Position numbers and translations under genes: made by a program
The notes under the pieces: model-generated
Database searches by the model: none
What the model was told of the DNA's origin: nothing
The model's input: the letters and a program-made list of their open reading frames with translations, nothing else
Shown here: piece by piece, positions 2,823 to 62,467 of the stretch
Position numbering within the stretch: position 1 is the stretch's first letter
Layout of the letters: every line of letters begins with the position of its first letter
NCBI GenBank assembly: GCA_951406725.2
Contig: OX597818.1
Coordinates: 66,526,001-66,590,000 of the forward strand
Length of the DNA: 64,000 nucleotides
DNA from: Octopus vulgaris
Lineage: Eukaryota
Direction: 5' to 3'

Positions 2823-3240
2823 GAAATATGGTGGGGGAATTTTAAGAGGTCATAAGCCAACAAATTTTGGGATCTGATGATACACCATAAGGCAAAACAT
2901 TTCATGTATGGGACATCTAAGGTAATCCCGTAAATCAGCCTTCTCCATTTTAATATATACAGCTCTACATATTCGTGTGTGCTCTTGTTTTCGACTTATG
3001 TTTTTTTTACAAACGATATATATATAACAATGATAAATCTGAGAGCGAGTTATAAACAGTAACGGCAACACATCGTGACGTATATTTGCCATTTGAATAT
3101 GGCTAACCCCTAAGGGTGGATGCTACTGTAGTTTGTAGCCCCAGGAAGACACCTCCTCCAGCTGGCTATAGACACACTTTCTGTGCCCTATCAGTATTTG
3201 TGAAGGGAAGCCATCCTTCCCGTCTTCAACTTATGATACT

Positions 3241-3281
3241 CACGGACTCGAGTTTCAAGGTGTTGACCTATCATCGGCGTG
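3241..3281 (-). ncRNA. Minimal type I hammerhead ribozyme-like motif (U4C core variant)
   Basis: Minus strand reads CACG CCGATGA T AGGT caac ACCT T GAAA CTCGAG TC CGTG: stem I, stem II, palindromic stem III and a GUC cleavage triplet. Confidence 0.7.
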
Positions 3282-3531
3282 TGACAATCATAATTGTCGA
3301 CAAGAAGTATCTTCCTGGGGCTACAAACTACAGTAGCATCCACCCTTAGGGGTTAGCCATATTCAAATGGCAAATATACGTCACGATGTGTTGACGCTAC
3401 TGTTTATAACTCGCTCTGAGATTTAATCATTGTTTGATTTCACTTTTTCAATATCAGTGTCAATCGATACTGGAAAAAAGTATATGTATTTGTGAGGGGA
3501 ACTGACTTCTTGTCGACAGCTATGATTGTCA

Positions 3532-3572
3532 CACGCCGATGATAGGTCAATACCTCGAAATTCGAGTCCGTG
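3532..3572 (+). ncRNA. Minimal type I hammerhead ribozyme-like motif (second copy)
   Basis: CACG CCGATGA T AGGT caat ACCT C GAAA TTCGAG TC CGTG. Confidence 0.7.
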
Positions 3573-3737
3573 AGTATCATATGTTTAAGACGGGAAGGAT
3601 GGCTTCCCTTCACAAATACTGATAGGGCACAGAAAGTGTGTCTATAGCCAGCTGGAGGAGGTGTCTTCCTGGGGCTACAAACTACAGTAGCATCCACCCT
3701 TAGGGGTTAGCCATATTCAAATGGCAAATATACGTCA

Positions 3738-3782
<45 letters not shown>

Positions 3783-6908: not shown

Positions 6909-6920
6909 CATATATATATG

Positions 6921-7124
6921 TGTTTGTCTCCCCTTCGTATGTGTATATAAGGACACAGGATAAAATGTGTCGAAGCTGTCAGGAGGCGTTCGATGCCTCC
7001 TAGGGGCTAAATAACGGTGGTGTACCCCCTACTGTCACGTTCTTGTTAGATTGACAGTATACAACCATTATATCGCTCCACCACCGTACACCTCTCTACG
7101 AGAGATTTAGAAACTCAATATTTT

Positions 7125-7125
<1 letters not shown>
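6921..7125 (+). mobile_element. ~200-bp multi-hairpin element in (TA)n; related to 26231-26422 and to the 3' domain of the 354-bp unit
   Basis: Stems GACACA/TGTGTC, AGGAGGC/GCCTCCT, TACTGTCA/TGACAGTA, ACGGTGGTG/CACCACCGT and CTCTC/GAGAG; (TA)n on both sides. Confidence 0.75.
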
Positions 7126-7213
<88 letters not shown>

Positions 7214-7216
<3 letters not shown>

Positions 7217-7400
7217 AATAAAATAGAACATATGCATATATATAAACATATATGTACGTACCTACCTCTACATGTACATATACACGCATATATGTGTACA
7301 GGACACCAAAAAGACGTCGAACACATAGAGAGACGAAAAACATAGACACAAACCAAGGAACAGGACAAGCAAAAAAGAAAAAAAGAGAGATACAGGACAA
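7214..7400 (-). repeat. Near-identical copy of the 14953-15137 terminus
   Basis: gttaataaaatagaacatatgc...caggacacc..gacgtcgaacacatagagagacg...caggacaa at both loci, each following (TA)n. Confidence 0.85.
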
Positions 7401-26139: not shown

Positions 26140-26230
26140 AACAATCACACACAAATAATTATATACAAATATATATTTATGTAAGTATATATAGATATGT
26201 ATATATATATATATATACATATATTTTTTT

Positions 26231-26518
<288 letters not shown>

Positions 26519-35397: not shown

Positions 35398-35812
35398 TAT
35401 TTCTTTATTTCCCAGAAGAGGCTAAACATAGAGGGGACAAAGAAGGACAGACAAAGGGATTAATTCGATTACATCGATCCCAGTGAGAAACTGGTACTTT
35501 ATTTAGCGACCCCGAAAGGATGAAAGGCAAAGTCGACCTCGGCGCAATTTGAACTCAGAACGTAACGACAAACGAAATACCTATTTCTTTACTACCCACA
35601 AGGGGCTAAACACAGAGAGGACAAACAAGGACAGACAAACGAATTAAGTCGATTATATCGACCCCAGTGCGTAACTGGTACTGATTTAATCGACCCCGAA
35701 AAGATGAAAGGCAAAGTCGACCTCGGCGGAATTTGAACTCAGAACGTAGCCGCAGACGAAATACCGCTAAGCATTTTGCCTGGCGCGCGAACGTGTCTGC
35801 CAGCTCGCCGCC
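35398..35812 (-). mobile_element. SINE family B dimer
   Basis: Full unit 35581-35812 fused to a headless unit 35398-35580. Confidence 0.9.
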
Positions 35813-62071: not shown

Positions 62072-62467
62072 TCTTTATATATAAAATAGAGGTTGCGTGC
62101 TGTCTGTCTCCTACGATTTAGATTCCTAACTAATCCCACATTTTGCGGTGTAGTTTGAACAAAACCGGGTATCTGATAGTCGTGATTCATATCGAGCCCT
62201 TCTGGGTATTAGCGCGCGTCTACGATGAGTCTACGATTTAAAAAATAATTTACCATCAATGTTTCCCATTTTTAATGCATTTTTGGCATATATAAGGGAA
62301 GTAACTCTCTAAAAATGTATTATTAAATCTCAGAACGTAAAAAGCTACAGTAACACCCCGCCTTTGTTGTTAGCCATATTGAGATGATTATTATACTTTA
62401 CATCTCTAAAAATGCTTATATGGTTATTTCCCTTACAAACCCGAGCAACGCCGAGCGATACTGCTAG
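62072..62467 (+). mobile_element. Non-autonomous Helitron (396 bp)
   Basis: A|TCtttatatataaaa 5' end, a subterminal GC-rich imperfect hairpin (cccgagcaacgccgagc) and CTAG|T 3' end. No target-site duplication; inserted between A and T. Confidence 0.75.

Follow-up and report, generated by a model that had tools for sequence, protein, structure and literature searches.

A covarying RNA fold in octopus hammerhead retroelements and its likely role as a start signal for a Penelope-type reverse transcriptase

The stretch of Octopus vulgaris DNA analyzed here (64,000 nt, "the window") carries two related sequences, at 6921-7125 and 26231-26422, which share about 85% identity and which a preliminary description singled out as an unnamed multi-stem RNA-like domain whose structure might be under selection. 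The locus raises the question of what element these sequences belong to and what the fold is for. Our analyses indicate that the domain is a real structured RNA within a known class of element, that it has a specific likely function, and that a site-specific LINE, which was unexpected, inserts in the same element. We consider 6921-7125 to be the 3' half of a non-coding, hammerhead-bearing retroelement of ~360 nt, with the fold likely acting as the binding and start signal for a Penelope-type reverse transcriptase (RT) that is supplied in trans, a reading to which we assign a probability of about 0.65.

The unit and its copies

A search of the 2.8-Gb assembly (227 contigs) showed that the genomic copies of the 6921 sequence come as 364-nt tandems with a hammerhead motif. 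The 6920..7123 copy has 99.0% identity to a full 364-nt subfamily B unit in locus L007 and begins 27 nt past the predicted hammerhead cleavage site; it lacks the hammerhead for the sole reason that it is 5'-truncated. As had been proposed, 6921-7125 and 26231-26422 both align colinearly with the subfamily A unit downstream of its hammerhead. The CCCTTC..ATA segment, in turn, had been taken as a piece of a free domain and is actually the 3' arm of a long rod around the hammerhead, and the pairing partner of this arm has been lost in the 6921 copy. The features mapped in the window are:

3026..3308, minus strand: inverted copy of the subfamily A unit, stopping at the long terminus in (TA)n
3304..3741, plus strand: partial tandem of the A unit (354-nt period), stopping at the short terminus in (TA)n
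3510..3531, plus strand: empty site matching the one duplicated by a Tx1-type LINE in other A-lineage copies
3530..3574, plus strand: type I hammerhead motif (core CCGAUGA..GAAA, palindromic helix III, predicted cleavage after C3568), read from the sequence and a descriptor scan; no Rfam match
6920..7123, plus strand: 5'-truncated copy of subfamily B (364-nt unit), flanked by (TA)n tracts and stopping at the long terminus
6923..6947, plus strand: 3' arm of the long rod around the hammerhead of full units, as folded in 7 natural units
6952..6971, plus strand: hairpin H2 (6 bp), double changes in 3/6 pairs, new G-C pair in lineage H
6974..7008, plus strand: hairpin H3, with an outer 4-bp stem (double changes in 1/4 pairs), an internal loop and an inner GGAGG stem (3/5 pairs)
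7014..7021, plus strand: 5' arm of the long stem, double changes in 5/8 pairs
7031..7058, plus strand: hairpin H6, inside the long stem
7068..7073, plus strand: modal position of the short 3' terminus (putative first RT start site), read through in the 6921 copy
7080..7087, plus strand: 3' arm of the long stem
7092..7109, plus strand: small hairpin H8, the 3' arm of which opens the GAGAYTTA motif; conserved, no double changes
7109..7127, plus strand: terminal segment to the long terminus (putative second RT start site), then (TA)n; subfamily B ends at +21 to +27
26228..26424, plus strand: 5'-truncated copy of sister subfamily C with the long terminus, (TA)n on both sides and one long-stem mismatch
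62306..62414, plus strand: minimal insertion with a 12-bp duplication on each side, within another high-copy repeat; an inverted long end (62318-62337) is followed by a forward piece to the short end (62338-62402)

The minimal long-end/short-end insertion at 62306-62414 recurs in three other loci (L138, L146, and L149), and the repeat that carries it in the window has an end that we take to be Helitron-like. Two further repeats were noted in the window: a different repeat end amid TA tracts at 7280-7400, possibly the terminus of another Penelope-like element (PLE) family, and a 184-bp repeat in two tandem copies (35398-35765) that resembles cephalopod SINE sequence. The spacer past the long terminus of the A, B, C, and D units has an extra hairpin after the tail (e.g., window 3446-3482), which in A and B is preceded by a pyrimidine tract and CAG, resembling a splice acceptor.

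The element is present in the genome in thousands of copies. A pattern of two helices from the motif gave 2,935 genomic matches and none for the reversed control; this pattern covers only A and B/C. Lineages D, E, F, and H were reached through weak profile matches in flanking DNA. The six lineages have units of 352-364 nt (tandem periods of 352-354 nt in A, 364 in B, 363 in D, 357-359 in F, and about 353 in H), all of them non-coding and all with one common fold, and lineages A, B/C, D, E, and F have about 45-58% identity across the domain; copies of subfamily D are mutually 99-100% identical. In seven natural units the hammerhead forms the tip of a long rod, the arms of which differ in sequence among lineages and still pair. 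In A, B, C, D, and F the hammerhead has its core, its helix II and a helix I of 6 bp; helix I is only 3 bp in the E copy, and the motif of lineage H was read by eye, the descriptor scan having missed it. The cores are often atypical, with CCGAUGA in B and some A copies, CCGACGA in C and a core of the U3-A8 type in D; hammerhead variants of PLEs in which helix III is palindromic and the core is of the U3-A8 type appear in the accessible part of PMC4209133, and according to the available portion of a study of Xenopus retrozymes only one of nine cleaved in vitro (Li, Clavereau & Pollet 2026, bioRxiv 10.64898/2026.07.22.740005).

These properties place the element in a known class (non-LTR retrozyme / PLE pseudo-LTR), and it is not an unknown class of RNA. 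The tandem units are non-coding and fall within the 150-450 nt of retrozymes, each has one type I hammerhead motif, and they have no LTR, PBS or PPT. Visible target duplications exceed 4 bp, with 12-bp duplications at window 62306/62403 and in locus L178; most copies sit in (TA)n, where duplications are unreadable. In the accessible text of the descriptions of animal non-LTR retrozymes (Cervera & de la Pena 2020, PMC7229834; bioRxiv 10.64898/2026.07.22.740005), mussel units measure 350-390 bp, comparable to the non-coding units here with one hammerhead motif each that occur as monomers, dimers and multimers, and a PLE origin or mobilization of animal retrozymes is proposed. The 364-nt unit is such a retrozyme, probably moved by PLEs. 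The accessible sections of these two papers contain no map of a conserved fold downstream of the ribozyme, of a pair of fixed termini or of targeting by a LINE, and the available portion of the giant squid paper gives a bare tally of 235 hammerhead matches. In a literature search that covered few subscription journals, nothing came up on retrozymes of octopus, on covariation in a fold at the start sites of PLEs, or on Tx1 elements that target a retrozyme or are inserted at a hammerhead ribozyme; the family may already be in Dfam or Repbase under another name or none.

That the domain is unnamed was borne out in Rfam, where no hammerhead, SECIS or other family matched it (cut-offs of E≤1 for the window, the gathering thresholds for 8 loci, and E≤10 for two units), the only real match being U2 in L207 and the remainder sub-threshold miRNA-type noise. 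A tRNA-derived SINE head was ruled out, as there were no tRNA genes in eight loci. Contigs of four runs span 22-28 of 28 bins with no joints, and are uninformative on strand, ends and circles.

Covariation in the fold

Twenty-four natural copies, drawn from 35 clusters of 130 domain copies and a few others, were aligned by sequence alone; rearranged or truncated copies were excluded, and 3 of the 27 copies picked were dropped at the anchor search before alignment. RNAalifold predicted 23 pairs from this sequence-only alignment, 12 of which have changes on both sides. In our named 32-pair structure, 91.7% of 755 cells pair, compared to 36-46% with slid partners, and both sides have changed in 14 of the 32 pairs. 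As the column-shuffle tool ignores the relatedness of copies, we also compared 12 tip pairs that have no branch in common. These independent pairs have 14 double differences, of which 12 preserve pairing, against a null of 5.1 ± 1.9 for re-paired columns (p = 1e-4). Of the one-sided differences, 30 break a pair and 18 keep pairing, those that break a pair coming from decayed copies and misregistered columns.

Lineage H was held out, having been fetched only once the alignment and the model were fixed. The covariance model detects it at up to 93 bits, and in eight H copies added by sequence alone 238 of 256 cells pair (37-49% when slid), with three pair types that the training copies lack; in the long stem of H, pair 8 is open. 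G.U cells outnumber A.C cells (45 vs. 17), and the hammerhead strand is therefore favored as the RNA. Swaps of the transversion type (A-U to C-G) are also present.

The geometry of the fold is constant: relative to GAGAYTTA, the inner hairpin ends at -47/-46 and the 3' arm of the long stem lies at -22 in all six subfamily references. The inner hairpin of subfamily B has its 5' arm shifted by six columns, and the predictions for A and F place part of the segment containing the short end in pairs. The arms of the long stem, given earlier as 3330-3337/3396-3403 and 7014-7021/7080-7087, were all located, each pair of arms being an exact reverse complement, and the A and B stems do differ by three double changes in 8 bp. 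The loop inside this stem had been described as not alignable; it can in fact be aligned, being of equal length and constant geometry across the six references. The proposal that structure is under selection has support, well beyond chance, from the whole fold, the 8-bp stem being weak evidence when taken alone (p = 0.019 for B vs. A, and p = 0.11 over the 12 independent pairs); all three A/B changes in this stem are transitions and one is at a CpG on both arms. We infer that selection on each master lineage preserves the fold while its sequence drifts.

Copy ends and the probable role of a Penelope-type reverse transcriptase

Copies of lineages A-F have 308 distinct 3' ends, and 254 of these lie in two fixed windows, either inside the loop of the long stem (114 short ends) or after GAGAYTTA (140 long ends, a count enriched by our picking of loci by similarity search), with 54 ends elsewhere. 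The short ends fall past the inner hairpin but ahead of the long stem's 3' arm (modes at -34 to -29 from GAGAYTTA), and this position on the fold is held even though the local sequence differs in every lineage. The long ends fall at +7 to +31, the mode being +12 to +17 for A and F, and +21 to +29 for B, C, D, and E. Directly beyond 154 of the 254 terminal ends is (TA)3, the exception being lineage E (0 of 35). In lineage H, 10 of 29 ends are short, at -36 to -31, and the long ends are scattered. The two fixed end windows are new here, as is the finding that inverted insertions have one end of each type: of 75, 71 have one long and one short end (including the window locus at 3026-3741), three have two long and one has two short.

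These layouts match those of PLEs. A partial tandem with an inverted 5'-truncated copy, a tail at one end only and an AT-rich or (TA)n target are all found here, and the accessible text of Craig et al. (2021, PMC8557442) reports for PLEs the tandem/inverted layout, with an inverted 5'-truncated copy in their pseudo-LTRs, insertion into (TA)n and, at one end, a tail of 30-40 bp; our tail of 45-65 nt is longer, which counts against the match. The protein of a green anole PLE, Poseidon PAc, nicks and extends both strands of AT-rich DNA, and its cDNA begins at two internal sites, with the genomic tail lying between them (Frangieh et al. 2024, PMC11167929). As in PAc, a hammerhead is followed by two sites that bound the tail, the start sites in the octopus unit being deduced from copy ends. 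Unlike the unit, PAc is autonomous and its start sites are inside the ORF, in one predicted AC-rich stem-loop, whereas the unit is a non-coding RNA with the two sites about 170 and 215-235 nt past the predicted cut, a 45-65 nt tail and a five-helix fold backed by covariation. Because copies end at two positions that are fixed relative to the fold, and because the long and short ends match the two PLE RT start sites demonstrated in vitro, an RT-recognition signal is the best fit among the roles proposed at the outset, and the fold is likely a signal for RT binding and initiation. The fixed ends reveal the start positions of the RT but do not single out the helices responsible for them; H2 and H3, 60-130 nt upstream, could have another role.

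The mechanism that we propose would begin with transcription of the unit into a multimeric RNA or, after hammerhead cleavage, a circular one, to which the PLE protein would bind. Its endonuclease would nick both strands of AT-rich DNA, one nick priming cDNA within the mostly unpaired segment inside the long stem and giving the short end, and the other nick priming cDNA 45-65 nt further 3' and giving the long end. The two cDNAs might then be joined by template switching to produce the inverted structure, and run-on copying round a circle or along a multimer would produce the tandems.

The genome abounds in PLEs with intact 781-aa RT+GIY-YIG frames, and these have other ends. No autonomous PLE with the fold was found, in that none of 13 model matches in 88 PLE- and LINE-bearing loci is contiguous with a PLE frame (an ORF with a telomerase-like RT and GIY-YIG), and homology of the unit to the terminal repeat of an autonomous PLE was not found among the few PLE families sampled in the same genome, a small sample since the accessible part of the O. 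vulgaris annotation has 190 Penelope-like families. Several candidate partners were rejected: the L148-type PLE differs in its 3' UTR, which is long; Neptune-like families from a GIY-YIG search have other ends; the copy 1.3 kb past the L243 ORF was inserted separately, outside the (TA)n in which that PLE ends; and other repeats intervene between the copy in L140 and the RT fragment upstream of it. In the course of this search we observed a young Neptune-like PLE (L239-L242) with an upstream frame of ~480 aa, a 781-aa RT+GIY-YIG frame, terminal repeats of 456-504 bp, a CCAAT/TGACGT-rich 3' region and a minimal hammerhead-like motif of the U3-A8 type about 70 nt before its end.

Three other roles for the pairing have to be weighed against an RT signal. 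The fold could have been kept mainly as a stable scaffold for a circular RNA (conferring nuclease resistance or assisting ligation and hammerhead folding), with RT starts set by local unpaired sequence. This remains one of the roles suggested originally and has points in its favor: as circles, four natural monomers give good folds (z -3.8 to -8.4), the hammerhead rod pairs in 7 units despite unrelated arm sequences, and animal retrozymes accumulate as self-paired circular RNAs, at least in the part available of PMC7229834. A scaffold would need neither the constant spacing (-47/-46, -22) nor the invariant stem bases, and would leave the constant position of the short end across locally differing lineages unexplained; because that end keeps its place on the fold as the local sequence changes, we prefer the RT signal and judge a scaffold rather unlikely. 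A second, unknown catalytic RNA, whether a cleaving or a ligating ribozyme, might be suggested by the multi-helix fold with its invariant residues and by the U.U opposition in its conserved internal loop. Nothing otherwise points to this role and we believe it to be most improbable: there is no match to a ribozyme in Rfam, the unit already has a hammerhead motif, and an RNA cut cannot explain a pair of long and short ends on opposite sides of an insertion.

It is similarly hard to credit that the pairing acts in single-stranded DNA, as in Helitron- or MITE-like elements, or that CpG decay and common descent gave rise to the covariation as a by-product. The three changes first noted in the long stem, transitions with one CpG on both arms, would suit this explanation, and the antisense folds are stable too (z -3.0 to -10.3), but it has to contend with the transversion-type swaps, the excess of G.U over A.C on the hammerhead strand, 5'-truncated copies with fixed 3' ends (as expected of retroposed RNA) and the retention of the helices in the held-out lineage.

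A Tx1-type LINE at the unit

Tx1L of Xenopus inserts in Tx1D, and in the octopus genome a LINE of Tx1 type inserts in the retrozyme unit. Its 3' end was found just before the hammerhead in two old A copies, and of the best 30 loci for its protein 25 end in the hammerhead and fold, four enter another shared repeat and one is cut short. The LINE is young (1,148-aa frames) and has APE endonuclease (PF03372), RT (PF00078) and zf-RVT (PF13966) domains. Our tentative assignment of it as Tx1-type is based on these domains and on a sister lineage (82% ORF2 identity) that sits at the 5' end of U2 (L207:5623-5816 and L208) as tandem insertions with the first U2 bases duplicated. In the accessible text of Kojima & Jurka (2015, PMC4640811), Keno and other target-specific Tx1 LINEs likewise have APE, RT and zf-RVT and insert at one site in a multicopy target with a duplication, and Keno, like the octopus sister lineage, is at the 5' end of U2; the octopus LINE shows the same single site, multicopy target and duplication and differs in that its target is a hammerhead retrozyme.

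The association at these loci, together with the youth of the LINE, might be taken to mean that the LINE itself is the mobilizing enzyme and that the hammerhead and fold are simply its 3' end. This explanation, to which we give very little weight, is largely refuted by the duplications. In 20 longer loci taken from the 25 for junction reading, unit spacer lies upstream of the LINE in 19 and a 12-22 bp duplication copying the sequence of the local subfamily is present in 18; the LINE ends 16-29 nt before the start of the hammerhead core of A-lineage units (L204, L319-L348). Relatives of the LINE in tandem arrays (92% ORF2 identity) or at U2 (82%) are without the fold, and their ends are ordinary, not two termini in (TA)n. 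The upstream spacer, the local duplications and the fold-free relatives indicate that the unit is the target of the LINE and not its tail. A narrow junction pattern for one LINE subgroup matched 16 sites and none in controls.

Two observations concern the LINE elsewhere in the genome. Five loci (L201-L203, L205, and L206) contain head-to-tail LINE arrays with a period of about 5,277 bp, intact 1,148-aa frames and no retrozyme sequence. Past the LINE end in four others (L187, L198, L199, and L200) is a third shared target, multicopy and on contigs C2 and C27, for which the two loci scanned gave no Rfam or tRNA match.

In three loci (L177, L178, and L321) pieces of the LINE are inside insertions that end at unit termini and have no upstream spacer, that of L178 having a 12-bp outer duplication. 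Such insertions suggest that the signal acts in cis on foreign RNA and that the LINE pieces were hitch-hiking, and they can alternatively be read as LINE insertion with target deletion. A broader reading, which we offer tentatively and rate at somewhat less than even odds, is that the five-helix fold is a portable template signal of a Penelope-type (telomerase-related) RT and that a Keno-related LINE switched from U2 to the retrozyme and rides this signal, such that PLE, retrozyme and LINE constitute a three-tier chain of parasites. The fold would then fix two priming sites, any RNA placed upstream of it would be copied into (TA)n, and the LINE, by landing in the rod just ahead of the ribozyme, would come to use the signal of the retrozyme.

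How the RTs of PLEs, the closest relatives of telomerase RT, recognize RNA has been addressed in a single in vitro study in which two start sites were located near a single predicted stem-loop (PMC11167929). The six natural lineages described here provide a model of the start region that is backed by covariation and has both putative start sites mapped onto it, and helix-by-helix tests are therefore possible. Mobilization of retrozymes by PLEs was previously argued from their co-occurrence and from similarity to pseudo-LTRs, and the paired long and short ends constitute mechanistic evidence for the PLE machinery moving animal retrozymes. If true, the retrozyme-targeting LINE would represent a new class of target for Tx1-type elements.
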